DNA of 64,000 nucleotides from NCBI GenBank assembly GCA_964577825.1, contig CAZOBJ010000001.1:11421-75420 (forward strand), given 5' to 3'. This document shows, piece after piece, positions 4,213 to 64,000 of this stretch. Source of the DNA: an uncultured Planctomycetales bacterium. Lineage in GTDB: Bacteria; Planctomycetota; SZUA-567; JAFGNG01. Both the position numbers and the translations under genes were made by a program. Below the pieces are notes generated by a model. The model saw only the letters and a program-made list of their open reading frames with translations. It had not been told where the DNA came from and did not search any database. Position 1 is the stretch's first letter, and each line of letters begins with the position of its first letter.

Positions 4213-4230
4213 CTTTCGCACAGCCTGACA

Positions 4231-5343
4231 GTGGGAGCGCGCATGAAGGCGCACCGTGCCATCGTCGCAGCCCTGGCGTTCTGTGCGGTTGCCCCGGCGA
4301 GTGCGGCCGTCCGGTTGGCGCCCCCGCGCGGCCGGATCGCTCGGGAGGTGTTGCTGTACTGGGCCGTTTCGCAGCGCGCCGAACGGATCGCCGAGCCGGG
4401 CCACCACGAGTTCGAGTTCGCCCTCGCCGCCGAGGGCGAGGGGACCGTCAAGGTCCAAGTGGTGGTGACCCGTGAGCCCGTCCCCGGGCGCGAGCGGGAC
4501 GCCGCGTATCCCGAGCGCACGACTGCGCAGGTCCTTGAGATCGCCTCGGAGGGCAAGGCGGCCCAGGTACGCTTCAGTGACGCCTTTCGGGAGGGGGACG
4601 TCGGAGCACGGGACCAGCCCGTGCCCGTGCAGCTCCCGGACGGTCAGAGGATTCCCATCTGTCACAGTTTCGTGACCGAGGCGGGGATCACCTGCCTGGT
4701 GCCGGAGGGCGCCGCCGACCTGCAACTCGTCCGGGCCGCCATGGCCGGCGACGTGCTGACGATGCGGGGCCAGGTCTTCGGCGTGCAGGATCTGGGGCCG
4801 TGCGTCGTGATTGACGGGGTGAAGTTCGCAGGTGACGAGCACGCCGCGGACGAGCCGCCCTGGGCCGTCCGCGTGCTGGGGGGCGGGCGCGACGTGAGCC
4901 TGGGCAGCGAACCGGGCGATTACACGGTCCGCATACCGCGCGGCGACGGTCAGGGGGAGGGAAACGCGCTCCTGGTCCGGCAGCGCCAGTTCAAGGTCGT
5001 GGACCTGGAGGCGAACGGCCACAAGATCGTGGCCGAGCTGGCGGCCAGCCCGCGCGAGACGAGCTACGGCCTCCAGGGCCGGCGCGGACTGGAGACCGAC
5101 CACGGGATGCTCTTCTTCTTCGCCCGGCCGGGACACCCCGTTTTCGTCATGAAGACGGTCTCTTTCCCCATCTCCATCGCCTTCATCCGCGCCGACGGGA
5201 TCGTTACGAACATCGGGCGGATGAACCCGGGAGACCAGAGAGGCGTGACGTCGGTCGTGCCGGTCAACTACGTCCTGGAGATGGAGCAGGACTGGTTCGA
5301 GGAGCACGAGGTGAAGCCCGGGGACCGCCTGACTATGCCCTGA
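4231..5343 (+). CDS. secreted DUF192 domain-containing protein with long N-terminal extension
   Basis: A signal-peptide-like N-terminus (AIVAALAFCAVAPASAA) is present. The C-terminal ~110 aa match the DUF192 pattern (GLETDHGMLFFF...FVMKTVSFPISIAFI...NYVLEMEQDWF). Confidence 0.7.
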   Translation: MGARMKAHRAIVAALAFCAVAPASAAVRLAPPRGRIAREVLLYWAVSQRAERIAEPGHHEFEFALAAEGEGTVKVQVVVTREPVPGRERDAAYPERTTAQVLEIASEGKAAQVRFSDAFREGDVGARDQPVPVQLPDGQRIPICHSFVTEAGITCLVPEGAADLQLVRAAMAGDVLTMRGQVFGVQDLGPCVVIDGVKFAGDEHAADEPPWAVRVLGGGRDVSLGSEPGDYTVRIPRGDGQGEGNALLVRQRQFKVVDLEANGHKIVAELAASPRETSYGLQGRRGLETDHGMLFFFARPGHPVFVMKTVSFPISIAFIRADGIVTNIGRMNPGDQRGVTSVVPVNYVLEMEQDWFEEHEVKPGDRLTMP

Positions 5344-5356
5344 CGCCGCCCCTGCG

Positions 5357-7393
5357 TCACGTGCAGGGCTCCTCCAGGATGCGGACGCCGAAGGGCTCCA
5401 GTTCGAGCCCGCCCGTGCGCGGTTCCCCGGTCAGCATGTCGCGGTACTCGCCGTCGCCCAGCTCGATGCGTGCCGCCTCCCGGTTGTGGTTGAGCACGAA
5501 GAGGAAGCTGCGGTCCTTCTGGCTGCGGCGGCGCACCTCCACGCCCTCCGGGCTCTCCAGGACGCCTGAGATGCCGCAGTCCGCGCAGAGCCGCGCGTAG
5601 AAGTTGGACAGGAAGTCCTCCCCGACGTCGGCCCCAACGTAGTAGGCCAGACCGTCTCCGAGGCGGTTCTCGGTCACAACGGGCCGGCCCGCGTAGAAGT
5701 CGTCGCCGTAAGCGGCGAGCACGCGGGCGGTCTCGGCGTGGGCGAGTTCGCAGAGCCGGCGGCACTCGTAGGCGCCCTCGCACGGCCCGAAATCGGCCTG
5801 CATGACGACCTGGTTGGTCCAGTCCTCGAAGAGGGCGTCAATTTCCTCGACCCAGACGCCGAGCGTCCGGCGGAGCGCGCCCGGATAGCCGCCCAGGTAG
5901 GCCAGGTCGTGCTCGTCCACCCAGCCGGTCAAGAAGGTGGCGACGAAGCGCCCGCCGGACTCGACGAATTGCTCGATCCGCTCCGCCCATTCGCGGCGGA
6001 CCGAGTAGAGCATCGGCGCGATGACCAGGTCGTAACCGGACAGGTCCGCCCCGGCGTCGATCACGTGAACCGGCACGTTCCGCTCCCAGAGGGTGCGGTA
6101 GTGCTTGAAGGCGGTCTCGCGGTAGCGCTTCTCGCGGATCGGCCCGGCGGTGGCGTCGAGGGTCCACCAGTTCTCCCAGTCGAAGATGAGGGCGACGCGC
6201 GCCTCCACGCCGGAGCCGAGGACGCCGTCTTCCAGCCGCTCCAGCTCTGCGCCGAGCCGGGACACCTCGGCGAAAACGCGCGTGTTCTCGTGACCGGCGT
6301 GGGCGACGACGGCGCCGTGGAGCTTCTCGCACCCGCCCCGGCCGCGCCTCCACTGGAAATACATGACCGAGTCCGCGCCGTGCGCCACGGCCAGGTGGCT
6401 CCACAGCCGCATCTGGCCGGGCCTCTTCAGGGCGTTGACGGTCTGCCAGTTCTGGGAACTCGGCGTCTGCTCCATCAGCATGAACGGCTGCCCGCCGCCC
6501 TTCAGCCCGTACATCAGGTCGTGCTGGAAGGCCACGTCGGCGACGTCGCCCCGGATGCTGGGGTAGCAGTCCCACGAGACGACGTCCACGTGGGGCGCCC
6601 ACTTGTGGTAGTCCAGGGTGTAGTGGAAGCCCATCATGTTGGTCGTCACGGGCACCTCGGGGGTGACCTCGCGCAACACGCCGGCCTCGTTCAGGAAGCA
6701 TTCGAGCAGGGCGTCGCTGCTGAAGCGCCGGTAGTCCACGTTCACGGCGGGGATGCTCCCCTCGCCGTTTTCGCGGGGGGGCTCCACCTGCGACCAGTCG
6801 GTGTAGGTGTGGCTCCAAAACGGCGTGTACCAGTTGCGGTTGAGTTCGTCGAGCGAGCCGTGCCGGCGCTTGAGCCACTGGCGGAAGGCTTCGGCGCAGT
6901 TCTCGCAGTAACAGGCCCCCGAGTACTCGTTCGAGACGTGCCAGAGCACCAGCGCGGGATGGTCCCTGTATCGCTCCGCCAGCTTGCGGGCGATCGTCGC
7001 ACATGCCCCGCGGTAGGCCGTGGAGTTCGGGCAGAAGTTGACCCTGTGACCGTGGCCTTTGCGGCGCCCGGACGCGTCCGAGCGCAGGACCTCCGGGTGC
7101 TGCTGCGAGAGCCACGCGGGGTGCGCGGCGCTCGGCGTGGCGAGGACGGCGTAGAGCCCGTTGTCGGCCAGCTTGTCCATGATGGTGTCGAGCCAGCCGA
7201 ACTCGAACGTGTCCGGCGCCGGCTGGAGGCTGACCCAACTGAACACGCCCACGGTGGCGACGTTGACGTTGGCCAGCTTCATGAGGCGCACGTCCTCGTC
7301 CCACACGTCGTCCGGCCACTGTTCGGGGTTGTAGTCACCCCCGTGGAAGAAGCGCGGCAGCCTCGTGCTGATGAGCGGGTGCATTCTCTCCAT
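5357..7393 (-). CDS. beta-galactosidase, glycoside hydrolase family 42
   Basis: GH42 hallmarks are present (FFHGGDYNPEQWP, WHVSNEY, zinc site CYCENC). The start is set to ATG 7391-7393 (MERMHPLI), preceded by GGAGAA. The 50 aa upstream in the ORF are not family-like. Confidence 0.9.
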   Translation of the reverse strand: MERMHPLISTRLPRFFHGGDYNPEQWPDDVWDEDVRLMKLANVNVATVGVFSWVSLQPAPDTFEFGWLDTIMDKLADNGLYAVLATPSAAHPAWLSQQHPEVLRSDASGRRKGHGHRVNFCPNSTAYRGACATIARKLAERYRDHPALVLWHVSNEYSGACYCENCAEAFRQWLKRRHGSLDELNRNWYTPFWSHTYTDWSQVEPPRENGEGSIPAVNVDYRRFSSDALLECFLNEAGVLREVTPEVPVTTNMMGFHYTLDYHKWAPHVDVVSWDCYPSIRGDVADVAFQHDLMYGLKGGGQPFMLMEQTPSSQNWQTVNALKRPGQMRLWSHLAVAHGADSVMYFQWRRGRGGCEKLHGAVVAHAGHENTRVFAEVSRLGAELERLEDGVLGSGVEARVALIFDWENWWTLDATAGPIREKRYRETAFKHYRTLWERNVPVHVIDAGADLSGYDLVIAPMLYSVRREWAERIEQFVESGGRFVATFLTGWVDEHDLAYLGGYPGALRRTLGVWVEEIDALFEDWTNQVVMQADFGPCEGAYECRRLCELAHAETARVLAAYGDDFYAGRPVVTENRLGDGLAYYVGADVGEDFLSNFYARLCADCGISGVLESPEGVEVRRRSQKDRSFLFVLNHNREAARIELGDGEYRDMLTGEPRTGGLELEPFGVRILEEPCT

Positions 7394-7465
7394 CGCATTT
7401 CTCCGGTCTTGAGTGTGAAGGGGGGAAGTATAACGCTCGCGCGGCCTGCCGGCAAAGGGACTTCC

Positions 7466-7494
7466 TTGCGCGGCCACAGGCGGTTTGTTATAGT
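7466..7494 (+). promoter_or_regulatory. putative promoter of the NDK-like gene
   Basis: TTGCGC (7466-7471), a 17-nt spacer, then TATAGT (7489-7494), about 48 nt upstream of ATG 7542. Confidence 0.3.
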
Positions 7495-7541
7495 GCAGCG
7501 GCGATGTTTCTGGACGGTCCTGCGCGAGGGGGCTTCTGTCC

Positions 7542-8978
7542 ATGTCCGAAGAGGCGGAACTGGCCTACGCGCTTGTAACGCCCTACACCCTGCACAAGAG
7601 CCGTACGGGCGGCATACTGGCTCGCCTGCTCTGGGCGAACGTCCGTCTGGTCGCCGCCAGGATGTACGCTCCCCGGCCCGGAAGCGGGTTCATCGAGGAA
7701 TACTGCGACGCCATCTACGACCCGGACGAGCGGGACATCCCCCTCCGTTACCAGAAGCTGCTGATCGAATACGTCCTGGAGAACTTTGGCAAGCCCAACG
7801 CGCGGGGCATATCCAACCGCCTGGCCGTCCTGATCTTCCGCGGGCCGAATGCCCTGCACGACATCGTGGAAGCCGTCGGCCACGTCAGTCAGCGCGTCAA
7901 GGGGGACACCGTCCGCGGCACGTACGGCGACTACTTCCGGGCGAAGCGTGAGGACGTTGCGGATGACCCGGGTTATCGGGCGCGCAAGGGCCTGCTGGAC
8001 CGGTACGCGAGGCTGCGGGACGTTGACCCGGACGAGCCGACCGACGATTTCTTCGAGCCAGCCGTGCTGACCGGCGTCACGCCGAAGATGAACGAAGCCC
8101 ACCTTAAGGTGTTCCGCAAGTACGCGTACAGCGACGGGGGTTTTGTGCTGGACGCGCTGGACGGAGGGGCCGCGCAGGACGTGGAGCACTCCCTCGTGGT
8201 GCTCAAACCGGAGATATTCCGCAATCGCAACCCCTTGCCCGGGAACCTGGTGGACTTCTTTGCCCGGTCCGGGATGTTCATTACCGCAACGAAGGTTCTC
8301 GAACTGAGCGTGGCGGAGGCCAAGCAGTTCTACAGCCTGAAACTGGACCAGTTCCGCGAGCAACTCAAGGGGATGGTCGCGGACAGGGCGCGCCAGATCG
8401 TCGCCAGGGCGCGGCTGCTGGCCCGGCAGGGAGTCGAGCGCATGGGGGCCGGCACCGAGGCCGCCTTCGCGCCGCAGAACGCCCTGACCGCGGCGCAGGA
8501 GGCCGAAGGCATCTTCTGCGGCGAGGCCGGCCCCGGCGACGTGAAGCCAGCCGTCGTCGCGCGTATCTATGATGAGCTGCGCGCCAGACTGACGGACCTG
8601 GACCCGCCCGACTCTCTCTACGACGAGTTGGCCGAAGAGCTGAAGGACCTCAACGGACGCGCTGAGTTCGACGAGTTGATCCGTTACATGACCGGCAAAG
8701 ACCCCCACAGCGGCAAGCCCATCGAAGCCGGCCGAGAAACGCATTGCATGGCCCTGCTGTACTCGGGGCGGAATGCACTATCCGCCACCCGCAAGCGGCT
8801 CAAGGAGCTGCGGGAGGTTTACGGGCAGAACCTGTTGCAGAATCGGGCGCACGCGAGCGACCCGGAGGAGAACCCGCTGAAGGAGATGGAGGTGCTCGGC
8901 ATGCCCACCTCGCCGCACGGGGAGGGCAGGCCCTGTGACCTGGAACAGGTGGTCAACGAGTTCTACCCCCCGGAGTAA
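7542..8978 (+). CDS. tandem nucleoside-diphosphate-kinase-like domain protein
   Basis: The N-terminal half resembles an NDK fold (AYALVTPYTLHKSRTGGILARLL...DTVRGTYG). A second NDK-like unit starts at EHSLVVLKPEIFRN and ends with the active-site motif NRAHASD (the NxxH[GA]SD pattern). About 120 aa of charged, helical sequence is inserted in between. Confidence 0.6.
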   Translation: MSEEAELAYALVTPYTLHKSRTGGILARLLWANVRLVAARMYAPRPGSGFIEEYCDAIYDPDERDIPLRYQKLLIEYVLENFGKPNARGISNRLAVLIFRGPNALHDIVEAVGHVSQRVKGDTVRGTYGDYFRAKREDVADDPGYRARKGLLDRYARLRDVDPDEPTDDFFEPAVLTGVTPKMNEAHLKVFRKYAYSDGGFVLDALDGGAAQDVEHSLVVLKPEIFRNRNPLPGNLVDFFARSGMFITATKVLELSVAEAKQFYSLKLDQFREQLKGMVADRARQIVARARLLARQGVERMGAGTEAAFAPQNALTAAQEAEGIFCGEAGPGDVKPAVVARIYDELRARLTDLDPPDSLYDELAEELKDLNGRAEFDELIRYMTGKDPHSGKPIEAGRETHCMALLYSGRNALSATRKRLKELREVYGQNLLQNRAHASDPEENPLKEMEVLGMPTSPHGEGRPCDLEQVVNEFYPPE

Positions 8979-8983
8979 GGGCC

Positions 8984-9625
8984 GTGCTTGTCATCCGCCT
9001 GGTGCTGGGGCCTCTGGAGACGAACGTGTACCTGCTCAGGGACCCTGGCAGCGGGGCGGGAGCCGTCGTGGACCCGGCCGGCGAGGCCGGCCGCATCGTC
9101 GAGAGATGCCGCGAGGAGCGCCTGACGCCGGAGTACATCGTCAATACGCACGCACACGTGGATCACGTCGGCGCGAACGCCGGCCTGAAGGAGGCGTTCC
9201 CGGCGGCTGTGCTCTGCATGGGTGAAGAGGAGGCCGGCACACTCGCCGACCCGGTGGCGAACCTTTCCGCCGCTTTCGGGCTGGCGGCGGGCGGGCCGGA
9301 GCCCGATCTCTGGCTCAGGGAGGGCGACGAGCTTCGTTTCGGCACGGTCGTGATGGAGGTTCTGGAGACGCCGGGGCACACCCCCGGCGGGATAAGCCTG
9401 CTGGCGCGGGGCGGGGGCATCCCGCAGCTCTTCTGCGGCGATGTCCTGTTCCGCCGCGGCGTCGGCAGGACGGACCTGCCGGGCGGCGATTGGGCGGCCG
9501 TGGTCGATTCGATCCGTCGGAAGCTCTTCACGCTGCCCGATGGCACGGTCGTCTGGCCGGGACACGGTGAGAGGACGACAATCGGCGAAGAGAAACGGGA
9601 GAACCCGTTTGTGGCGGCGCTTTGA
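8984..9625 (+). CDS. MBL-fold metallo-hydrolase (hydroxyacylglutathione hydrolase-like)
   Basis: The HxHxDH metal motif is present (NTHAHVDHVGAN), followed later by PGHTPG. At 213 aa the size is typical of GloB-like enzymes. Confidence 0.85.
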   Translation: MLVIRLVLGPLETNVYLLRDPGSGAGAVVDPAGEAGRIVERCREERLTPEYIVNTHAHVDHVGANAGLKEAFPAAVLCMGEEEAGTLADPVANLSAAFGLAAGGPEPDLWLREGDELRFGTVVMEVLETPGHTPGGISLLARGGGIPQLFCGDVLFRRGVGRTDLPGGDWAAVVDSIRRKLFTLPDGTVVWPGHGERTTIGEEKRENPFVAAL

Positions 9626-9657: not shown

Positions 9658-11259
9658 GTGGCGAGGATCCAGACAGCTCTGATAACAGTCGCGGATAAGA
9701 CCGGGGTCGCGCAGTTTGCGCAGCGACTCGTCGGGCTCGGAGTTGAACTCCTTGCCACGGGAGGGACGGCTCGCTTGCTGCGTGAGAGAGAGCTCGAGGT
9801 GACCGACGTCAGCGAGTACACGGGCTTCCCGGAGATACTGGACGGCGGCCTGCGCGTGCTTCACCCCAAGGTGACCGGCGGCGTTCTGGCCCGGCGCGAT
9901 CAGCGGCACCTGCGCGAGTTGGAGAAGCTTGGCATCCGCACGATCGACATGGTGGTCGTGAACCTCTATCCGCACGTCAGCCTGATATCGCAGCCCGGCG
10001 TCCGGCAGATGCAGGCGATTGAGGACATCGACATCGCCGGGCCGACCGTCGTCCGGGCGGCCGCCAAGAACTACACCCACGTGGCAGTCGTCACCAACCC
10101 GGCCACGTACGACAGCGTGGCGGAGGAACTTGAGAGCAACGACGTGCACCTCTCCGAGGAGACGCACTTCAAGCTCGCCCTGGACGCGTTCCGCCACACT
10201 GCTCACTATGACGCGGCCATCGCGAGGTACTTCGCCAGCATCCACGGCGAGGTGGGGACCGCCCTGGAGCAGATCACGCTGGAATACGACAAGAGGCAGG
10301 ACCTGCGCTACGGCGAGAACCCGCACCAGCGGGCCGCCTTCTACGTCGAGCAGGACGTCAAGGAGCCCTCGGTGAGCGGCGCCAGGCAGGTCGCCGGCCC
10401 CGTGCTCTCCTTCAGCAACGCCCTGGACCTCGATGCCGGGATCGAGCTAGCCAAGGAGTTCGAGCGCCCGGTCGCAGTGATCGTCAAGCTGGCGAATCCG
10501 TGCGGCGTTGCAGTCGCGAAGTCGCTCACCCGGGCCTACGAGAAGGCCTATCTGGCGGACCCGCGGGCCGCGTTTGGCAGCGCCGTTGTGCTCAATCGCC
10601 CTCTTGACGCGGACACGGCCCGGGCCGTCGCCGGCCCCGTAGTTGAGGTGGATGGCAAACCCGTGCCCCGTTTGGTGGAGTGCCTGGCTGCTCCGGGCTT
10701 CGAGGACGGGGCGCTGGACGCCCTCCGCGAGAAGGCTGACTGGGCAGCCCGTACGCGCCTGCTCGAGGTCGGGCCTCTGGGGCCGCGCGCCCGCGACGAG
10801 GCCAGCAAGGACTTCAAGCGCGTCACTGGCGGCGTGCTGCTGCAGGATCGCGACCTGATTGGGCTCGATCCCGGGGGGCTGAAGGTTGTTACGGGAACCG
10901 CCCCCAGCGCGCAGCAGATGCGGAATCTGAAGTTCGCCTGGCTCTGCTGCAAGCACGTCACGTCCAACGCCATCGTCGTGGCCAAGGGCAAGACGCTGGT
11001 GGGCGTCGGCGCGGGGCAGATGAGTCGCCTCGACGCAACCGTCCTGGCCCTGACCAAGGCCGGCGCAAGGGCGCGCGGAGCCGTGCTGGCCAGCGACGGC
11101 TTCTTCCGGTTCCCCGACGCCGTCCAGCGTGCGGCCGAAGCGGGCGTGGCGGCGATCATCCAGTCCGGGGGGGCGGAGCACGACCAGGCAGTCATTGAAG
11201 CCGCCGAACAGGCCGGGATCGCCATGGTCTTCACCGGCATCCGGCACTTCCGCCATTGA
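9658..11259 (+). CDS. purH: bifunctional AICAR transformylase / IMP cyclohydrolase
   Basis: The protein is PurH-like over its full length (ALITVADKTGVAQFAQRLVGLGVELLATGGTARLL, ...MVFTGIRHFRH at the C-terminus). The start is placed at GTG 9658, 6 nt after AGGAGG. The ORF opens at TTG 9622. Confidence 0.93.
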   Translation: MARIQTALITVADKTGVAQFAQRLVGLGVELLATGGTARLLRERELEVTDVSEYTGFPEILDGGLRVLHPKVTGGVLARRDQRHLRELEKLGIRTIDMVVVNLYPHVSLISQPGVRQMQAIEDIDIAGPTVVRAAAKNYTHVAVVTNPATYDSVAEELESNDVHLSEETHFKLALDAFRHTAHYDAAIARYFASIHGEVGTALEQITLEYDKRQDLRYGENPHQRAAFYVEQDVKEPSVSGARQVAGPVLSFSNALDLDAGIELAKEFERPVAVIVKLANPCGVAVAKSLTRAYEKAYLADPRAAFGSAVVLNRPLDADTARAVAGPVVEVDGKPVPRLVECLAAPGFEDGALDALREKADWAARTRLLEVGPLGPRARDEASKDFKRVTGGVLLQDRDLIGLDPGGLKVVTGTAPSAQQMRNLKFAWLCCKHVTSNAIVVAKGKTLVGVGAGQMSRLDATVLALTKAGARARGAVLASDGFFRFPDAVQRAAEAGVAAIIQSGGAEHDQAVIEAAEQAGIAMVFTGIRHFRH

Positions 11260-57724: not shown

Positions 57725-58840
57725 TCACCAATCGGCCACCGAACCGTCCTCGTGCCAGAGCCGCGGGTTCTCCCACGAGCCGTCGTAGAGCTTCTCCTCC
57801 AGGGCCTCCTCGTCGATCTCAATGCCGAGCCCGGGCGCCGTCGGCACGTCCACGTGGCCCTTCGAGACGACGAAGGGCGTCTTCAGGTAGCCCTCGCCGA
57901 GGCAGACCTGCTCCTGGCAGAGGAAGTTGGGCGTGCAGGCGTCCAGTTGCAGTGAAGCGGCCAGCGCGATCGGCCCGAGGGGGCAGTGGGGCGCCACTGC
58001 CGCGTAGCAGGCCTCCGCCATGGCGGCGATCTTGCGCACCTCGAAGATGCCGCCCGCGTGAGAGAGGTCCGGTTGGAGGATCGCCGCGGCGCGCTTCTCG
58101 AGCACCTCTCGGAACGCCCACTTCGTGAAGAGCCGCTCCCCCGTAGCGATCGGCACGGTCGTGCTCCGGGCGATCCCCGCCAGGGCGTCCACGTCCCCGG
58201 GCAGGCAGGGCTCCTCGACGAACATCGGGCGGTACGGCTCCAGGGCCTTGATGAGTTGCAGGGCGAGCGCGGGGCTCACGCGGCCGTGGAAGTCAATGCC
58301 GATGTCCACCTCCGCTCCCACGGCCTCGCGGAGGGCGGCGATCCGGGCGACGGCCTCCCGCACGAACTCCCCGCTCTCGACGAACCGCGCTGCGCCGAAG
58401 GGGGCCGTCTTGACGGCCGTTATTCCTGCGGCAGCGGCCTCCCGTCCCGACGCGGCATATTCGTCGGGGCTCTTGCCGTGGACGTGGCCGTAGACCCGTA
58501 TCCTGTCGCGCACGGCCCCGCCGAGGAGTTGGTAAACAGGCACGCCGAGCCACTTGCCCGTGATGTCCCACATCGCCTGCTCGATGCCGCTGAGGGCGCT
58601 CGTCAGGACCGGGCCGCCCCGATAGAAGCCGCCCCGGTAGATGGCCTGCCAGTGTCGCTCGATGCGGCGCGGGTCCTTGCCGATGAGGTAGCGCCCCATC
58701 TCCTGGACGGCGGCCGCGGTGCTGCGCGACCAGCCCTCGACGACCGGCTCGCCCCAGCCGGCGATCCCCTCGTCCGTGTGGGCCTTCAGGAACACCCAGC
58801 GGGGCCTGACGTAGAAAGTCTCAAGCTTTGTGATCTTCAC
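57725..58840 (-). CDS. dgoD: D-galactonate dehydratase (enolase superfamily)
   Basis: The protein is near-colinear with E. coli DgoD as I recall it (MKITK...RWVFLK..TDEG..GWGEPV.EG..., QPDLSHAGGI, APHCPLGPIALAA, C-terminal HEDGSVADW). It has a GTG start at 58840. Confidence 0.9.
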   Translation of the reverse strand: MKITKLETFYVRPRWVFLKAHTDEGIAGWGEPVVEGWSRSTAAAVQEMGRYLIGKDPRRIERHWQAIYRGGFYRGGPVLTSALSGIEQAMWDITGKWLGVPVYQLLGGAVRDRIRVYGHVHGKSPDEYAASGREAAAAGITAVKTAPFGAARFVESGEFVREAVARIAALREAVGAEVDIGIDFHGRVSPALALQLIKALEPYRPMFVEEPCLPGDVDALAGIARSTTVPIATGERLFTKWAFREVLEKRAAAILQPDLSHAGGIFEVRKIAAMAEACYAAVAPHCPLGPIALAASLQLDACTPNFLCQEQVCLGEGYLKTPFVVSKGHVDVPTAPGLGIEIDEEALEEKLYDGSWENPRLWHEDGSVADW

Positions 58841-58938
58841 AGGCCGTCTCCCAGCAAACAGGGCAGGGCCGTTGCCTTCCCGATGCCCGACGGGGAGCCC
58901 GTGACGATGATGGCCTTTCCCTCGAACCGCTTGTCCAT
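58837..58938 (-). pseudogene. 33-codon remnant of a short-chain dehydrogenase/reductase N-terminus, stop overlapping the dgoD start
   Basis: This feature is not in the ORF track because it is under 60 aa. ATG 58938 follows AAGGGAG and encodes MDKRFEGKAIIVTGSPSGIGKATAL-PCLLGDGL*. The first 25 aa are a classic SDR Rossmann start (TGxxxGIG). Similarity is lost thereafter, and TGA overlaps the dgoD GTG (GTGA). Confidence 0.45.
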
Positions 58939-59115
58939 GCCTTTGCGCTCCCTTCGCTGGCGGGTCCGGAGCCGTGCGGACCGGACACCGGGGAGGTTAT
59001 ACCGGCGCCGCAAGCGGCCAGCAAGTGCGCCCCGCCCGGCGGCGCTTTCCTTGAACGGGCGGACGAAAGCAGTTAGTCTGCCACGTCGTGTTGGTCATCG
59101 GGCCGGCTGTGAGGG

Positions 59116-59781
59116 ATGAGGACCATGTTTGACGAGCAGATCGCGAGCAGGATCGAGAAATGCGGCGTCGTGGCCGTTCTGACGGTCGAGCGGCCGGAGG
59201 ACGCCGCCCCCCTGGCGCGGGCGCTGCTGGAGGGCGGCGTCGAGGCGATGGAGCTGACGCTGCGCACGGAGGCTGCCGTCGAGGCCCTCAAGGCCGTCGT
59301 CGCCGAGGTGCCTGAGATGCTGGCGGGGGTCGGCACGGTGCTGACGCCCGAGCAGGTAGCGCTCGTCAGCCAGGCCAGGGCGGCCTTCGCGGTGGCGCCC
59401 GGGACTAACCCGCGCGTCATCGAGGCCGCGCGCGAGCTGGGCCTCTCTTTCGCGCCCGGCGTGGCGACGCCGTCGGACGTCGAGCGCGCGTTGGAGTTCG
59501 GGTGCCGCACGCTCAAGTTCTTCCCCGCCGAACGTATCGGCGGCCTGCCTTACCTGAAGAGCATGGCTGCCCCGTACGCCCACCTCGGTCCGCGCTTCAT
59601 GCCGCTCGGGGGCGTCAACGCGGACAATATGTCCGACTACCTGACCAGCCCGCTGATACTGGCCGTGGGCGGCTCGTGGATAGCCCCGAAAGACGGCATC
59701 CGCAACCGCGACTGGCCGGGCATCGCACGGACGGCCCGCGAGGCGACCGCAATCGTCCGGCGCGTGCGCGGCTCCGGCTGA
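59116..59781 (+). CDS. eda: 2-dehydro-3-deoxy-phosphogluconate / -phosphogalactonate aldolase (KDPG/KHG aldolase family)
   Basis: VVAVLTVERPEDAAPLARALLEGGVEAMELTLRT...GVGTVL...LKFFPAE...GGV is Eda/DgoA-like. ATG 59125 is an alternative start. Confidence 0.88.
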   Translation: MRTMFDEQIASRIEKCGVVAVLTVERPEDAAPLARALLEGGVEAMELTLRTEAAVEALKAVVAEVPEMLAGVGTVLTPEQVALVSQARAAFAVAPGTNPRVIEAARELGLSFAPGVATPSDVERALEFGCRTLKFFPAERIGGLPYLKSMAAPYAHLGPRFMPLGGVNADNMSDYLTSPLILAVGGSWIAPKDGIRNRDWPGIARTAREATAIVRRVRGSG

Positions 59782-59810
59782 CCGCCAACTTTCAGAAAGG
59801 CGCGGCTGCA

Positions 59811-60902
59811 ATGAGCAAGATAGTCACGTTCGGCGAAATTATGGCCAGGATGGCGGCGCCGGGGTTCCTGCGCTTCGGGCAGACGATGCCCGGGCGCATG
59901 GACGTGACGTTCGCCGGCGCGGAGGCCAACGTCGCCGCGTCCGTCGTCCTGCTGGGCGGCGAGGCGGCTTTCGTCACGGCCCTGCCGGCCAATCCCCTCG
60001 CCGACGCCTGCCTGGCCTCCCTGCGCGCCGTCGGCGTTGACGTGTCGCACGTCCTGCGCCGGGACGAGGGCCGGCTCGGCCTCTACTTCCTCGAAACCGG
60101 CGCCAACCAGAGGCCCAGCCGGGTCGTCTATGACCGCGCCGGCTCGACCGTCTCGCTGACGCCCGCCGACGCCTACCCGTGGGCGGAGGTCTTCGCGGGC
60201 GCCGGCTGGTTCCACGTCACCGGCATCACGCCTGCTATCTCGAAGTGCGCCGCCGACGCGACGCTCGCCGCTGTCCAGGCCGCCAGGGCCGCCGGCCTGA
60301 CCGTCTCCTGCGACCTGAACTTCCGCAAGAAGCTCTGGCGGTGGGAGCCGGGCACGGAGCCCCGCGCCCTCGCCGAAAGGGCGATGCGCCGCGTGCTGCC
60401 GTTCGTTGACCTCGTCGTAGCCAACGAGGAGGACGCCGCCAAAGTCCTCTCCATCGAGGCCGAAGAGACGGACGTCGAGGCCGGCCGCCTCGCCGTCGAG
60501 CGCTACCCCGAGGTCGCCCGCGCCGTCGTCGCCCAGTTCGCCAACGTCAGCCGCGTCGGCATCACCCTGCGCGAGAGCGTCTCGGCCTCGCACAACAACT
60601 GGGGCGCCATGCTCTACGACGCCGCCGAGGACGCCGCCTACTTCGCCCCGACCGAGGGCGGCGCATATCGGCCCTACCAGATCAGGAACATCGTGGACCG
60701 CGTCGGCGGCGGGGACGCCTTCGCGGCGGGGCTCATCCACGCGCTGATGACGCCCGAACTCGCCGCGCCCGGGACGGCCGTTGCCTTCGCCGCGGCGTCG
60801 TCCTGCCTGGCGCACTCCATCCTGGGGGATCTCAACGTGTCGAGCCGCGCCGAGGTCGAGGCGCTCATGAAGGGGTCCGGCTCGGGCCGCGTCGTCCGCT
60901 GA
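59811..60902 (+). CDS. kdgK: PfkB-family 2-dehydro-3-deoxy-gluconate/galactonate kinase
   Basis: The start is ATG 59811 (MSKIVTFGEIMARM). The C-terminal PfkB motif VDRVGGGDAFAAGLI is present. The context sits between an aldolase and a dehydratase. Confidence 0.8.
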   Translation: MSKIVTFGEIMARMAAPGFLRFGQTMPGRMDVTFAGAEANVAASVVLLGGEAAFVTALPANPLADACLASLRAVGVDVSHVLRRDEGRLGLYFLETGANQRPSRVVYDRAGSTVSLTPADAYPWAEVFAGAGWFHVTGITPAISKCAADATLAAVQAARAAGLTVSCDLNFRKKLWRWEPGTEPRALAERAMRRVLPFVDLVVANEEDAAKVLSIEAEETDVEAGRLAVERYPEVARAVVAQFANVSRVGITLRESVSASHNNWGAMLYDAAEDAAYFAPTEGGAYRPYQIRNIVDRVGGGDAFAAGLIHALMTPELAAPGTAVAFAAASSCLAHSILGDLNVSSRAEVEALMKGSGSGRVVR

Positions 60903-60944
60903 GGCGCGCCGCTCCGGCCGACCCCCATGCGAAGGGAGGCGGGG

Positions 60945-62075
60945 ATGAAGATAACCGGCATCCGCACGTTCCTCATCGGCAATCCGTGGAAGAACTGGGT
61001 GATCGCGCGCGTCGAGACGGACGAGGGCCTCAGCGGCCTCGGCGAGGCCACGTCCCCGACGGCCGGGGCGCTGGCGGCCGAACTGAAGGAACTGAGCCGC
61101 TTCGTCGTCGGCATGGACCCCCGCGAGCCCGTGCGCGTCTATGAGGCGATGTACAAGGGCGTCTTCCTGCGCAACACCCCCGGCATCTGCGCCATCGAGA
61201 TCGCCTGCTGGGACATCCTGGGCAAGAGCCTCGGTGCGCCGCTCTGGCGGCTTCTCGGCGGCAGGGCGCAGGGCCGGCTCCGCGCCTACGCCAACGGCTG
61301 GTACAAGTGCCCCCGCGAGCCCGCCGCTTTCGCCGAACGCGCCGTCGCCGTGAAGGAGATGGGCTACACGGCCCTGAAGTTCGACCCCTTCGGCGCGGCC
61401 TACCTCGACCTCGACACGGCCGAACAGAAGCTCTCGCTCTCGCTGGTGCGGGCCGTGCGCGACGCCGTGGGGGAGGGCGTGGACCTGCTGATCGAGGGGC
61501 ACGACCGCTTCAGCACGAGCACGGCGGTCCGGGTCGGCCGGGCGTTGGAGGAGTTCCGTCCGGCGTGGTTCGAGACCCCCGTGCACTCGGCGGATCTCAA
61601 GGCCACGGTCGAGGTTGCGCGGGCGATCCCGGTGCCGGTGGCCAGCGGGGAGCGCCTCTCGCGTCTGAGCGAGTTCGCCGACCTGCTCGCGCCGAGGGCC
61701 GTTTCCATCGTCCAGCCGGAGCCGTTGCGTTGCGGGGGCGTGGGCGGCACGGTGCGGGTGGCGGCGCTGGCCCGGGCGCACGGCGCGCTGGTCGCCTGCC
61801 ACCAGGCGCAGAGCCCCCTGAGCACCGCCCTGAACGCCCACCTGCACGCTGCCATGCCGAACTTCATGATCCAGGAGTGCTTCGACGACTTCCTGGAGCC
61901 CTGGGCGCGGGACCTGTTCCCCGGCGTGCCGCGCGTGGTGGACGGCTGCATCGAGCCGCCCGACGCATCCGGCATCGGCGTCGAGCTGAACGAGGAAGAG
62001 GCCGCCCGGCACCCGTATGGCGAGGACAAGTTCATCCGCCTCTTCGAGCCCGGCTGGGAGCGCCGCCGGCGCTAG
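60945..62075 (+). CDS. mandelate racemase/muconate lactonizing enzyme-family acid-sugar dehydratase (second enolase-superfamily member)
   Basis: The start is MKITGIRTFLIGNPWKNWVIARVETDEGLSGLGEAT. Metal-ligand regions are present (LIEGHDRF, SGERL, IVQPEPLRCGG). The substrate cannot be assigned by eye. Confidence 0.8.
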   Translation: MKITGIRTFLIGNPWKNWVIARVETDEGLSGLGEATSPTAGALAAELKELSRFVVGMDPREPVRVYEAMYKGVFLRNTPGICAIEIACWDILGKSLGAPLWRLLGGRAQGRLRAYANGWYKCPREPAAFAERAVAVKEMGYTALKFDPFGAAYLDLDTAEQKLSLSLVRAVRDAVGEGVDLLIEGHDRFSTSTAVRVGRALEEFRPAWFETPVHSADLKATVEVARAIPVPVASGERLSRLSEFADLLAPRAVSIVQPEPLRCGGVGGTVRVAALARAHGALVACHQAQSPLSTALNAHLHAAMPNFMIQECFDDFLEPWARDLFPGVPRVVDGCIEPPDASGIGVELNEEEAARHPYGEDKFIRLFEPGWERRRR

Positions 62076-62225
62076 TGGCCCGTTCAACCGATAACCTTGC
62101 ACTCCGGGCCCACCCCCGGCGAGACGCCGGGGGCTACCCATAGGGGTAGGCGGGGCGTCTCGCCCCGCTGCCTGGTTCAGACATAACTCGCAAAACGCAA
62201 GGTGACTTCCTCATCAGGCCACTAG
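62072..62225. repeat. palindromic/structured element bounded by 9-bp inverted repeats (possible second MITE-like element)
   Basis: CTAGTGGCC (62072-62080) and GGCCACTAG (62217-62225) are exact inverted repeats, each containing TA. A bipartite hairpin lies inside: GGCGAGACGCC at 62118-62128 pairs with GGCGTCTCGCC at 62154-62164, and an inner CTACCC/GGGTAG stem spans 62134-62149. The left end resembles the 44863 MITE end in 12 of 16 positions. Confidence 0.4.
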
Positions 62226-62319
62226 GCGACGGCCAGGGCACAACGCCCGGAGCCGCCGCTCCCGCTGCGGGCCCTGTCCGGGCGGACAATTTGTCAAAGA
62301 GCATCACCCCACCACAGGC

Positions 62320-62351
62320 CCCAGGGATGCCGTTCCTGGGAGTTTTGTTTT
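62320..62351 (+). terminator. intrinsic-terminator-like hairpin plus T-tract
   Basis: CCCAGG (62320-62325) pairs with CCTGGG (62335-62340), and the stem is extendable by A-U/G-U pairs. It is followed by AG-TTTTGTTTT (62343-62351). T-runs like this are rare in this G+C-rich sequence. Confidence 0.45.
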
Positions 62352-62532
62352 GTCAGGAGCCTTTACTGGGGGGTGACAAGACGGACATGCCAAGCCGCGC
62401 CCAAAGGCGCGCGGGGTGGATAGTCGACGGTTGATAGTTGACAGTTAACGACGCGTGTGCCCTGATCGTTCTCGAAGGATGTTGTTTGTTTCTTGTTGCT
62501 TGCTGTCTGTTCTCTCGTTCCGCTGCGTTGTG

Positions 62533-62559
62533 CCTTCGTGTTCTTCGTGTCCTTCGTGG
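62533..62559. repeat. 3 x 9-bp tandem repeat (YCTTCGTGK) inside an 82-nt A-free tract
   Basis: CCTTCGTGT / TCTTCGTGT / CCTTCGTGG are contiguous at 62533-62559. The plus strand has no A at all from 62480 to 62561. Confidence 0.8.
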
Positions 62560-62710
62560 TGAAAGCCCTTGCCGTTCCATTCCGCATTCCCCGATCCACA
62601 TTCGCATCGCCGCTGCCTTCCCTCAATCCTCATGCCTGCCGTACGGCGGACCGTGGCCTACCGTTCCCGTTGCTGCCTTTCGTCGTTACTTCGGACTTCA
62701 GCCTTCTGCC

Positions 62711-62746
62711 TTCGCACTTCCGCACGGAACGAGTATACTCGTTCCG
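62711..62746 (+). promoter_or_regulatory. 22-bp perfect palindrome (candidate operator) overlapping a promoter-like TTCGCA-17-TATACT
   Basis: CGGAACGAGTATACTCGTTCCG (62725-62746) equals its own reverse complement. Its centre TATACT (62734-62739) lies 17 nt downstream of TTCGCA (62711-62716). Confidence 0.4.
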
Positions 62747-62824
62747 CGCGGCTCATGTGTCCGATCTGGGCGCTACTGACCGATCTTTTCGTTACTGACG
62801 GATCCGGGCGCCCGGGCGGAGCCA

Positions 62825-62853
62825 TTGACTTCCACATTTCGTGCTATTAGTAT
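62825..62853 (+). promoter_or_regulatory. putative promoter of the S24-peptidase-like gene
   Basis: TTGACT (62825-62830), a 17-nt spacer, then TAGTAT (62848-62853). It lies 30 nt upstream of ATG 62884, which is preceded by AGGAGA. Confidence 0.45.
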
Positions 62854-62883
62854 CGTTGCCGTATCAGACAGGAGAAAGGGAAC

Positions 62884-63211
62884 ATGTGCCCTCGCCCCAA
62901 GCCGTCAAACCGCCCCCTCGCAACTTTCAACTGCCGTCAACTGGAGTTCAACTCCGCCTTCTGTGCGCAGGCCGGGTTTGAGGAACGGTGTGTGGAGTAC
63001 GCCACGCCGTCCCTGGGTGAGACCAGCCCGGGACGGAGACATCGTCGTGGTTGAGACATGGGACGGGCGGATCCTGACCAAGCGGTTCTACCGGCGGGGG
63101 GGCAACGTCACACTGACGTCCGTCAACCCCGTGGATCGCCAGGAGCCGATCCACCTCAAGTCGAAGCAGGTCAAGGAAGTTCGCGTCGTGGTGGGAGCGC
63201 TCTTCGAGTAG
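62884..63211 (+). pseudogene. stand-alone S24 (LexA/UmuD-type) peptidase domain gene, apparently frameshifted
   Basis: ATG 62884 opens a 56-aa frame (…AQAGFEERCVEYATPSLGETSPG…) that stops at 63052-63054. The overlapping ORF 62825..63211 supplies the typical S24 C-terminus (RDGDIVVVETWDGRILTKRFYRRGGNVTLTSVNP...VVGALFE). The two join at the CCCGGG run, 63027-63032. Confidence 0.45.
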
Positions 63212-63242
63212 AGAAACGTCGCTCTAACTGGAGGGAAGGGCT

Positions 63243-64000
63243 ATGCTAGGCCGATGGGCATGCGTATGTATGATGGTCGTGGTCTTCGGTTCCGTCGCTG
63301 CAAAGCGTGTGCGGAGTGCTGAGGAAGGGACGGCGTCCGTGGAGGAGCTGAAAGCGCAAGTCGCGCAACTTGAGGCACGGGTCGCCGAACTGGAGACTGC
63401 GGTGGCAAAGGCCGAGGAGGAGGCCAAGGAGGTTCGTAAGCGCAACGGGGGGTTGCTCCTGGAAGTCCGGCGCCTCGGAAGGCTTTGTCGAGAAGCAGGC
63501 GTACAGACCGAGGAGAAGAAGCAACCGGCGCCCAGACCTCCAGCCCAAGAGGACTCTACCTCGCCAGACAAATCGCCATGGGATGGCTTCCGGGGCCTGA
63601 AATGGGGACAGCAGCTCGACCAATGCAAGGGCATGGGCCTGTGGCTGTCCGACAAGGATAGCCCACTATTGTCCAAGAGCGATAGCAGACTATACCATCG
63701 CGGGGAGCAGATGTCCATTGGCAATGCCAAACTCACCAGGGTGCTATATGGTTTCTATAGGGGTAAGTTCTATAGGTACGTGGTGATCACTAGTGGCTAC
63801 AGCAATTTCACTGCCCTGAAGTTGGCGGTCGAAGCGCGCTATGGCCGCGGCAAGCAGGAGAATGAGACCATCGATGAGTGGCGCTGGACCGGCAATACCA
63901 GCAGCGGCCAGATGATCGTCATGACGCTGGAATACAACGAGTTCGACGAAGAAGCTCTCTGGTATGCGTTACATGTGCCGACCCTCCAACAGGAACGGCG
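63243..64000 (+). CDS. secreted coiled-coil protein, function unknown (partial, runs off window end)
   Basis: This feature is absent from the ORF track because it has no stop inside the window. ATG 63243 follows GGAGGG, and I read the frame as open to base 64000. It has a signal-like N-terminus (MLGRWACVCMMVVVFGSVAA), a coiled coil (VEELKAQVAQLEARVAELETAVAKAEEEAKE), a Pro-rich linker, and then a globular domain (RVLYGFYRGKFYRYVVI...). Confidence 0.6.
   Translation, partial: MLGRWACVCMMVVVFGSVAAKRVRSAEEGTASVEELKAQVAQLEARVAELETAVAKAEEEAKEVRKRNGGLLLEVRRLGRLCREAGVQTEEKKQPAPRPPAQEDSTSPDKSPWDGFRGLKWGQQLDQCKGMGLWLSDKDSPLLSKSDSRLYHRGEQMSIGNAKLTRVLYGFYRGKFYRYVVITSGYSNFTALKLAVEARYGRGKQENETIDEWRWTGNTSSGQMIVMTLEYNEFDEEALWYALHVPTLQQER

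Follow-up and report, generated by a model that had tools for sequence, protein, structure and literature searches.

The subject of this analysis is a compositionally aberrant tract at positions 62415–62720 of a 64-kb window (the whole stretch of DNA analyzed, 64,000 nucleotides [nt] of an uncultured Planctomycetales bacterium), situated in an 808-nt gap between genes. We consider it probable that this tract does not code for protein and is a degenerate copy of an intergenic repeat composed of modules, rather than a regulatory array built for the locus, and that a block of nonamers within it is the core of a wider hairpin repeat. The window copy is a lineage-specific solo arm of that repeat, unstructured, at the edge of a ~3.3-kb islet of low G+C content and beside a broken S24-repressor gene. 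Followed 5′-to-3′ on the minus strand, the tract reads as a chain of short purine-rich modules, in the order five NNNGAAG heptamers, a CCGCCGTACGGC-type palindrome, AACGG-rich repeats, CTTTCAC plus (CACGAAGNN)3, an A/C-rich T-free tail and ACTGTCAACTATCAAC. Its parts are as follows:

62689–62723, minus strand: five tandem heptamers, NNNGAAG on the minus strand and CTTCGGA CTTCAGC CTTCTGC CTTCGCA CTTCCGC on the plus strand.
62636–62649: CTGCCGTACGGCGG, an imperfect 14-nt palindrome with one mismatch to CCGCCGTACGGCGG.
62566–62600, minus strand: AACGG-rich stretch (…GGAATGCGGAATGGAACGGCAAGGG), the equivalent of an AACGGC hexamer module.
62533–62565, minus strand: solo nonamer arm, CTTTCAC plus CACGAAGGA CACGAAGAA CACGAAGG (Tandem Repeats Finder [TRF], period 9, 2.9 copies).
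62480–62532, minus strand: A/C-rich, T-free tail GCACAACGCAGCGGAACGAGAGAACAGACAGCAAGCAACAAGAAACAAACAACA, the plus strand of which is a T-rich TGTTGYT heptamer array within an 82-nt A-free run.
62471–62479, plus strand: CTCGAAGGA, one mismatch to CACGAAGGA, possible last unit of a decayed left arm.
62415–62446, plus strand: 14-nt unit GGTKGATAGTYGAC (TRF, period 14, 2.3 copies).
62430–62445, within the 14-nt-unit region: GTTGATAGTTGACAGT, read on the minus strand as ACTGTCAACTATCAAC, the 3′-terminal module.

Neither BLASTN nor a fuzzy pattern with up to three substitutions recovered a second copy of the tract in the window, but BLASTN found matches in two other contigs, here called L175 and L127. 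Window positions 62496–62577 match L175 at 83% over 82 nt (E = 7e-17). The match to L127, a contig that a second metagenome contains as well (L168), is 87% over 60 nt (E = 7e-11). L175 is a non-viral-looking metagenome contig of 59.9 kb (G+C 0.67) with sulfatase genes. It carries two intergenic modules (7388–7660 and 9154–9530), each starting at the stop codon of the upstream gene (cTGAACCACG...), and holds all modules of the window in the order of the window minus strand, i.e. GAAG heptamers, the CCGCCGTACGGC palindrome, AACGGC hexamers, CTTYCAC plus nonamers, GCACAAC plus an A/C-rich tail, and ACTGTCAACYATCAAC. L127 is a viral contig (IMGVR_UViG_3300029258_005854) from the same Joint Genome Institute sample as L146, a contig identical to part of the window (see below), and shares several of the window modules. 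Its 13.8 kb contain six three-unit nonamer blocks and a two-unit arm, forming two full hairpins (5293–5433 and 9144–9286), together with seven GAAGGCA arrays of 4.5 units, AACGGC arrays and T-free runs of 104 and 85 nt. The L127 modules are intergenic, some of them ending at a Shine-Dalgarno sequence plus start codon, and nearly all lie on the plus strand, the apparent gene strand as judged by open reading frames (ORFs), Shine-Dalgarno/start contexts and two methyltransferase matches.

The correspondence can be followed module by module. Within the heptamer array, GAAGGCAGAAGGCTGAAG (62696–62713) matches the seven GAAGGCA arrays of L127 and L175 9201–9218. The 12-nt palindrome core CGCCGTACGGCG, from which the window copy deviates by one mismatch, is present among 175 loci in four copies in the L175 modules and one in L084. 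The stretch 62566–62600 aligns with AACGGCAACGGC of L175 (7435–7446 and 9247–9264) and with L127, and the tail at 62480–62532 aligns to L175 7477–7514 and L127 1667–1691 (GCACAAC..., AACAAGAAACAAGCAA). Among the same 175 loci, the 16-mer ACTGTCAACYATCAAC occurs outside this locus only in L175 (7630–7645), ~25 nt before the start of a sulfatase gene. A dispersed repeat family was among the interpretations offered by the initial annotation, which had been made from the sequence alone, and the ordered modules shared with L175, the several shared with L127 and the presence of the 9-mer block in many phyla support it, over a wider range than expected. Rfam returned no match to the L175 and L127 modules.

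The wider repeat emerged from a scan of one genome per species for YCTTCGTGKYCTTCGTGKYCTTCGTG, which gave at least 120 loci; the family figures that follow refer to the matches listed. The complete form, 5′-TTNAAC(CACGAAGNN)3 … (NNCTTCGTG)3GTTNAA-3′, is present in 60 of 120 genome loci. Exact blocks of at least three units have an inverted partner within 350 nt downstream in 104 of 173 cases and upstream in 7 of 173, i.e. the polarity is 5′-CACGAAG...CTTCGTG-3′. The six bases outside the arms, which the query did not impose, fit TT[T/G][A/C]AC and are mirrored on the far side. The arms are ~33 nt long and cease to be complementary 6 nt beyond the 9-mers. The same flanks accompany the variant units CACGGAG, CACAGAG and CACAAAG. 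Flank and unit of the window arm fit this consensus, TT[T/G][A/C]AC(CACGAAGNN)3. The spacers between the arms measure 12–288 nt (median 77), are often palindromic themselves and are unrelated even within one metagenome-assembled genome (MAG; L013 ×2, L029 and L101). Complete copies fold into 25–35-bp hairpins at −57 to −91 kcal/mol, with z scores of −9 to −14.5 relative to shuffled sequences. Each arm consists of three direct 9-mers and has no self-complementarity. Among the 2-nt spacers inside the arms, 25 of 93 are complementary between arms, against 18 expected, and this lack of covariation indicates that the 7-mer is conserved as a sequence and not merely as a pairing partner.

Spacer lengths modulo 3 are distributed 25:16:14, without the restriction to multiples of three that a coding element would show, so that the family is non-coding. 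This bears on the idea that the tract is a remnant of, or a template for, a His-rich coding repeat (HEGHEEHEG), such as those of ZnuA-like metal-binding loops. About one fifth of the genome matches are indeed real His/Glu-rich coding repeats that use the same nonamer (L054, L117, L053 and L083, the latter two in a ZnuA-like context). However, hairpin copies are seen in all three frames, the HEG frame of the window is a 62-residue ORF (62445–62633) with no Pfam match and no plausible start context, and the neighboring modules are shared with non-coding intergenic DNA of L175. We give this idea next to no credence.

The 60 partner-bearing loci are labelled from at least nine phyla (Acidobacteriota, Pseudomonadota [alpha, beta and gamma], ‘delta’ groups, Chloroflexota, Gemmatimonadota, Verrucomicrobiota, Planctomycetota, Cyanobacteriota and others) and range in G+C content from 0.51 to 0.73. 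Carriers include three isolates, Phenylobacterium terrae CGMCC 1.16326, Dokdonella fugitiva RH2WT43 and Herpetosiphon sp. NSE202, and a MAG labelled Akkermansia muciniphila. The copies are intergenic; the genes on either side are convergent in 25 cases, tandem in 48 and divergent in 8, and the nearest gene 3′ end is at a median distance of 67 nt. Flanking genes are diverse housekeeping genes, with no enriched Pfam family among 168 flanking ORFs (94 + 74). At one locus, presence of the element varies between close relatives. In P. terrae, ~200 nt including a hairpin of 4+4 units separate divJ from a convergent gene, while three relatives (81–89% DivJ identity) have 8–39 nt at the same junction. 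We regard it as established that the modules are homologous and that the family has the architecture, the polarity and the flank consensus given above. The same is true of its intergenic placement near gene 3′ ends, of gain or loss between close relatives, and of the absence of the tract from the relatives of the present organism (see below).

The abundance of the nonamer does not contribute to this case. A raw match count of at least 120, against a random-sequence estimate of ~0.008, was dropped as evidence for a family, as permuted nonamers are equally common as coding repeats. In a viral collection (IMG/VR), permuted patterns were found at 63, 3 and 48 loci, compared to 24 for the real pattern. 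The control nonamers (units CAGGAAC and CAGAAGC; L176–L289) are frequent in viral contigs, including many giant-virus MAGs, and lie nearly always within ORFs of at least 250 residues, presumably as three-residue protein repeats. Consequently, the argument for a family rests on the partner, the polarity, the flank and the intergenic position. Indeed, partners accompanied 1 of 70, 0 of 3 and 2 of 55 control blocks, compared to 11 of 34 blocks of the real pattern in the same collection. BLAST gave no match in plasmid and cultured-phage collections, a result that is uninformative, as the query may be masked by low-complexity filtering. In Rfam, the matches of eight loci that carry complete hairpins were all spurious ones to miRNA precursors, far below the gathering score, and exact-sequence searches of the open literature returned nothing relevant to the nonamer repeat. 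The family therefore appears to be undescribed in Rfam and in the open literature searched.

The closest known kind is that of repetitive extragenic palindromic (REP) sequences, their hairpin-forming pairs (REPINs) and BIMEs, of which the present family would be a variant, its function being conjectural. REPs, including the GTAG- and CGTC-tagged super-families, are short extragenic elements present in tens of copies per genome near gene 3′ ends; they mostly occur as head-to-head inverted pairs able to form long hairpins, and singletons are read as decayed pairs (Di Nocera et al. 2013, PMC3733652). The super-families span several phyla (eight in that study), the CGTC class lacks a linked transposase, and the REP unit is a small stem-loop with a 5–13-bp stem and an unpaired GTAG or CGTC tag (PMC3733652). 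The repeat described here resembles them in its inverted pairs of one polarity, its extragenic location near gene 3′ ends, its cross-phylum spread and the lack of a linked transposase within ±4 kb. It differs in that its arm is made of direct 9-mers, whereas a REP unit is an imperfect palindrome of 20–40 nt, and in that its flank and its ends carry no GTAG or CGTC tag. With miniature inverted-repeat transposable elements (MITEs) it shares ~33-nt terminal inverted repeats, a fixed inside/outside polarity, non-autonomy, dispersal and presence/absence between close relatives; however, no parent insertion sequence was found for it, and one terminal repeat across nine phyla would be unprecedented for a MITE.

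Other likenesses are more partial. Neisseria DNA uptake sequences and Haemophilus uptake signal sequences are single, lineage-specific 9–12-mers present in thousands of copies per genome, and their inverted pairs double as terminators. As in the present family, a short motif is kept for its sequence and often stands in inverted pairs downstream of genes as terminator-like hairpins, but here the motif is a threefold tandem 9-mer of low copy number that crosses phyla. Early mRNA of phage T7 carries intergenic RNase III processing hairpins, which are T7-specific and not tandem 9-mers. The long hairpins of L127, known from sequence alone, resemble them in having internal mismatches and in separating consecutive genes; they lie on the apparent gene strand, a few nt past a stop codon and ~20–30 nt before the next ribosome-binding site. 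Integron attC sites likewise have conserved imperfect inverted ends around a center variable in length and sequence, and many copies of the repeat end in ...AAC / GTT.... However, the arm ends are AAC/GTT in ~55% of copies and CAC/GTG in ~30%, giving only a partial fit to RYYYAAC/GTTRRRY. Moreover, the copies do not form cassette arrays but stand singly among housekeeping genes, and some loci carry labels of phyla in which integrons are rare. The resemblance of the flanks to attC, for these reasons, and that to parS were rejected. A further candidate rule, a stop codon within the TGAAC flank, was dropped as well; it is true for three L175/L127 modules and for only ~1 in 25 copies of the wider set.

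Several observations weigh against reading the tract as a copy of a dispersed, REP/REPIN-like repeat. No transposase or RAYT/TIRYT gene was seen beside any copy within ±4 kb (168 flanking ORFs), and no direct repeat of at least 3 nt, as expected for a target-site duplication, was found at boundary offsets of 0–12 nt, the one signal there being weak and 2 nt long. Within one MAG, copies have their arms in common but not their interiors, unlike MITEs and REPINs, which copy the interior. The hairpins are very stable, but only 10 of 53 copies (~19%) are followed by a T4 run within 18 nt, against a background of 3% that includes coding DNA, which makes a partial and weak terminator signature. The Phenylobacterium comparison is a single case, in which gain and loss are indistinguishable without a phylogeny. 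The window modules lie antisense to both neighboring genes, whereas those of L175 and L127 lie on the apparent gene strand, and the tract is present in one copy in the ~72 kb available for this genome. Finally, a 7-mer kept across phyla in the absence of arm covariation is not predicted by selection for a hairpin alone and points to a sequence-specific factor.

This last observation leaves room for a bolder proposal, which we put forward tentatively and do not favor. The (CACGAAGNN)3 inverted pair might define an undescribed extragenic super-family, shared by viral contigs and no fewer than nine bacterial phyla, with its 7-mer kept for sequence rather than for base pairing. This would imply a widely conserved sequence-specific partner, either a protein that binds RNA or DNA or an enzyme that mobilizes the repeat without duplicating the target, and the modular T-free tracts of a planctomycete-like lineage would be a local elaboration.

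At the window, the inverted partner of the nonamer arm is absent; the best alignments score 7 downstream and 5 upstream (threshold 14). CTCGAAGGA has the polarity expected for the hairpin, lies 54 nt before the CTTCGTG block and pairs with that block in the minimum-free-energy fold. It may be all that survives of a left arm, with the reservation that a one-mismatch 7-mer within 300 nt is not significant alone (chance estimate ~0.4).

Recounting bore out the unusual features of composition that had first drawn attention to the tract. There is no A in 62480–62561 (82 nt; 41 T, 22 G and 19 C), the longest A-free run of the window; 27 of the 60 positions in 62461–62520 are G or C; and the pyrimidine fraction over 150 nt peaks at 0.727, the highest value in the 64 kb and 4.7 standard deviations above the mean (0.50, standard deviation 0.048). 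Likewise present are the three contiguous 9-mers CCTTCGTGT/TCTTCGTGT/CCTTCGTGG (62533–62559), TGGATAGT (62417–62424) and TTGATAG-TTGACAG (62431–62444), although the region of the latter is better described by the 14-nt unit in 2.3 copies at 62415–62446. The length of the A-free run alone is only modestly exceptional, because the second-longest such run (76 nt, 3460–3535) lies in a region under long ORFs, indicating that long single-base-free runs also arise in apparently coding sequence of this high-GC genome. The exceptional feature is the strand asymmetry, with a GC skew of −0.21 to −0.34 and an AT skew of −0.33 to −0.79 across 62450–62750. Every module unit lacks T on the minus strand, hence the plus strand lacks A, and as every stop codon needs both T and A, the T-free tract is open in all six frames. 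This explains the low-complexity small ORFs called across it, none of which matches Pfam and which had correctly been suspected to be repeat DNA mis-called as protein. In L127, two GAAGGCA arrays of 4.5 units (10065–10096 and 10816–10847) apparently lie inside paralogous ORFs, before a shared C-terminal ...EQ(K/N)LEALGYA*; stop-free repeats may thus also be tolerated in coding sequence.

The tract has a 7-nt periodicity over its whole length (z = 6.4), to which three arrays give rise: the 62415–62470 region, TGTTGYT at 62480–62502 (TRF, period 7) and CTTCNNN ×5 at 62689–62723. In the first of these, the 14-nt unit reads as two TTGAYAG-like 7-mers, the source of the signal there, and a tandem TTGAYAG occurs once in the window, compared to 0.27 expected; in 62640–62720, lag-7 autocorrelation reaches z = 4.2. 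An assembly artefact, raised as a possibility at the outset, is excluded by three independently assembled contigs from different samples, of which L145 and L147 are identical to the window over 59000–64000 and L146 is identical up to its own end at 62894. The source samples are JGI 3300029258 and 3300029267 and ENA ERZ27256770. L146 ends ~10 nt into the ORF of the S24-gene remnant (start 62884), just beyond the 808-nt gap, which may reflect an assembly break or strain variation.

On either strand the tract folds no better than shuffled sequences (z = +0.5 for the plus strand and −1.8 for the minus strand over 321 nt; −0.2 and −0.4 for the core), and there is no Rfam match at E ≤ 5 in 58000–64000. 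Of the suggestion of a strand-biased structured RNA, the strand bias stands and is a family trait, as seen in the T-free runs of L127; the structure is not supported for this copy. An unstructured, pyrimidine-rich plus-strand RNA with more C than G would, however, suit a rut-like, Rho-dependent terminator that ends transcription of the upstream operon or, family-wide, stops antisense transcription. Rho binds YC dimers, with roughly 9–10 nt per subunit, and with the CTTCGTGNN unit a UC recurs every 9 nt. The tract lies downstream of an operon of three genes, and its plus-strand RNA folds no better than shuffled sequences and has the skews given above. Yet a terminator-like hairpin with a T run (62320–62350) already stands between operon and tract, the apparent sense strand in L175 and L127 is purine-rich with almost no YC dimers, the pyrimidine arm is base-paired in complete copies, and in other genomes neither orientation relative to genes is preferred by solo arms (18 vs. 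13). We consider a Rho-dependent terminator improbable.

The minus strand could instead yield an unstructured regulatory RNA or protein ‘sponge’, U-free and purine-rich, which by means of GAAGGA (Shine-Dalgarno- or CsrA-like) and AACAAGAA (Hfq/Crc-like) would titrate an RNA-binding protein or ribosomes. CsrA sites read ANGGA and Hfq/Crc sites AAnAAnAA. The five NNNGAAG heptamers, the three CACGAAG units and AACAAGAAAC of this strand fit such a role, and the RNA would be single-stranded (z of about −0.4). However, no minus-strand promoter-like site and no terminator after the tract on that strand were found, Rfam has no match, GGA is present in only about one third of the family units, and the tract is absent from relatives; moreover, the family is present in loci labelled Actinomycetota, a phylum not known to carry CsrA. 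A sponge RNA is quite improbable.

A third function, raised by the initial annotation as an iteron-type binding array and here taken as the origin of replication, or the iterons, of a plasmid-like element that has integrated, is largely refuted and in our view highly improbable. In its favor are several short direct-repeat arrays within 300 nt, a G+C content below that of the surrounding DNA and two 7/9 matches to the DnaA-box consensus TTATCCACA. These matches exist (62415–62423, and cgATCCACA at 62592–62600, inside the AACGG-rich stretch), but they are not an enrichment, the window holding 63 such matches against 49 ± 7 expected, which is chance density. No rep, par or dnaA gene lies near the tract. 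The repeat units here are 7, 9 and 14 nt, the first two being shorter than known plasmid iterons, of 17–22 bp. Moreover, ordinary genes flank the modules elsewhere: 13.8 kb of L127 contain them at least seven times, and 12 kb of L175 contain them twice. At this locus, the apparent origin signal is stranded repeat DNA, and the small ORFs called across the tract should be discarded.

Upstream of the tract runs a plus-strand operon that encodes a 2-keto-3-deoxy-6-phosphogluconate (KDPG) aldolase, a PfkB-family sugar kinase and an enolase-superfamily dehydratase. The 808-nt gap holds, in order, a structured segment, the terminator-like hairpin, the tract, a palindrome, a tandem repeat, a promoter-like site and the S24 remnant:

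62320–62350, plus strand: terminator-like hairpin CCCAGGGATGCCGTTCCTGGG then AGTTTTGTTTTG, 245 nt past the operon and upstream of the tract.
62720–62751: 32-nt near-perfect palindrome CCGCACGGAACGAGTA/TACTCGTTCCGCGCGG (GGAACGAGTATACTCGTTCC core), an inverted repeat with 16-nt arms, 94% complementary, without spacer.
62758–62811: tandem 19-mer in 2.7 copies (TGWCCGATCT...), between the palindrome and the promoter-like site.
62825–62853, plus strand: promoter-like site TTGACT-17-TAGTAT (promoter scan).
62884–63211, plus strand: frameshifted remnant of an S24 (LexA/CI-type) peptidase gene (Pfam Peptidase_S24, E = 3.8e-07, C-terminal half only), split by gene callers into fragments of 56 and 54 residues.

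The 32-nt palindrome abuts the tract, overlaps a further promoter-like site (62711–62739), is unique among all loci fetched and belongs to the context rather than to the repeat family; it resembles an operator for the adjacent S24-type repressor remnant. Over roughly 62400–65600 (window coordinates), the G+C content drops from ~0.70 to 0.57–0.63 and then recovers, delimiting the ~3.3-kb islet. The best protein relatives, with ~81% amino-acid identity, retain the three-gene aldolase, kinase and dehydratase operon and continue into different genes within 70–630 nt; they have neither the tract nor a nonamer block. Of those that bear a label, the nearest is ‘Candidatus Brocadiae’ (Planctomycetota), at 80%.

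The low-G+C islet and the broken S24 peptidase gene make an integrated-element context of the tract plausible, although no element boundaries were found. Such a context could be taken further, as the regulatory region of a decayed prophage or other integrated element, in which the 14-mers with their TTGACA, the 32-nt palindrome and the 19-mers would be operators and promoters between the S24 repressor gene and a lost divergent early operon, the tract being the leader of that operon. The strong promoter-like site of the broken S24 gene, the palindrome directly between that gene and the tract, and the low G+C content of the islet fit this picture, and so does the fact that a viral contig of the same sample, L127, is among the sequences most closely related to the tract, its modules being intergenic and in part ending at start sites. 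However, no phage gene was found, the islet genes have no protein similarity to the viral loci fetched, and no boundary repeat or att-like sequence was detected, only two 14-nt inverted matches in inconsistent order. Moreover, the 16-mer containing TTGACAGT also stands upstream of a sulfatase gene in the non-viral-looking L175. As an explanation of the tract we judge the prophage region unlikely; it accounts for the context and not for the repeat modules, and is compatible with a degenerate copy of the modular repeat. A protein link between islet and viral contigs was rejected, since TBLASTN found nothing and the TBLASTX matches are compositional noise.

For the modular repeat, we suggest a scheme in which solo arms, such as that of the window, would be remnants of inverted pairs, as REP singlets are of REPIN pairs. 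Complete copies may act at the RNA level as 3′-end or intercistronic hairpins, serving as a terminator, a stabilizer or a processing site, and may spread, as selfish or neutral DNA, without duplicating the target. Hairpin and T run are both lacking in the window copy, and being solo, unstructured and antisense to its neighbors, it would most likely be spacer DNA at the edge of a foreign low-G+C islet; it is probably inert.

Catalogues of dispersed palindromic repeats are good for Proteobacteria but next to empty for Acidobacteriota, Planctomycetota, Gemmatimonadota, Chloroflexota and Verrucomicrobiota. The same 7-mer core, flank and polarity in all these phyla would be a handle on a shared mechanism, be it mobilization, termination or RNA processing, and the cultured carriers P. 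terrae, D. fugitiva and Herpetosiphon make the family accessible. The repeat also poses an annotation problem. As its units have no stop codon in any frame, they lengthen spurious ORFs and give rise to fake ‘HEGHEG’ or ‘FVSFVV’ database proteins.

Three minor observations concern other sequences. In L070 (Psychromonas sp. SP041), a 137-nt unit is repeated 5.6 times in tandem at 7047–7830, with CTTCGTG and CACGAAG blocks tail-to-tail, opposite to the usual hairpin. L175 has four matches to the Rfam Acido-Lenti-1 RNA motif at 3814–5130, three of which reach the gathering score. After the S24 gene, the islet continues in L145 (11631–14128) with a 266-residue secreted coiled-coil protein and a pentapeptide/ion-channel protein. 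In the window itself, ARAGORN detected no tRNA or tmRNA, including at 62104–62175, where Rfam gave only a weak miRNA-like match. On the plus strand, these 72 nt directly after the dehydratase stop codon form a closed, cloverleaf-like junction of three hairpins, in a 273-nt region with a folding z score of −3.3.

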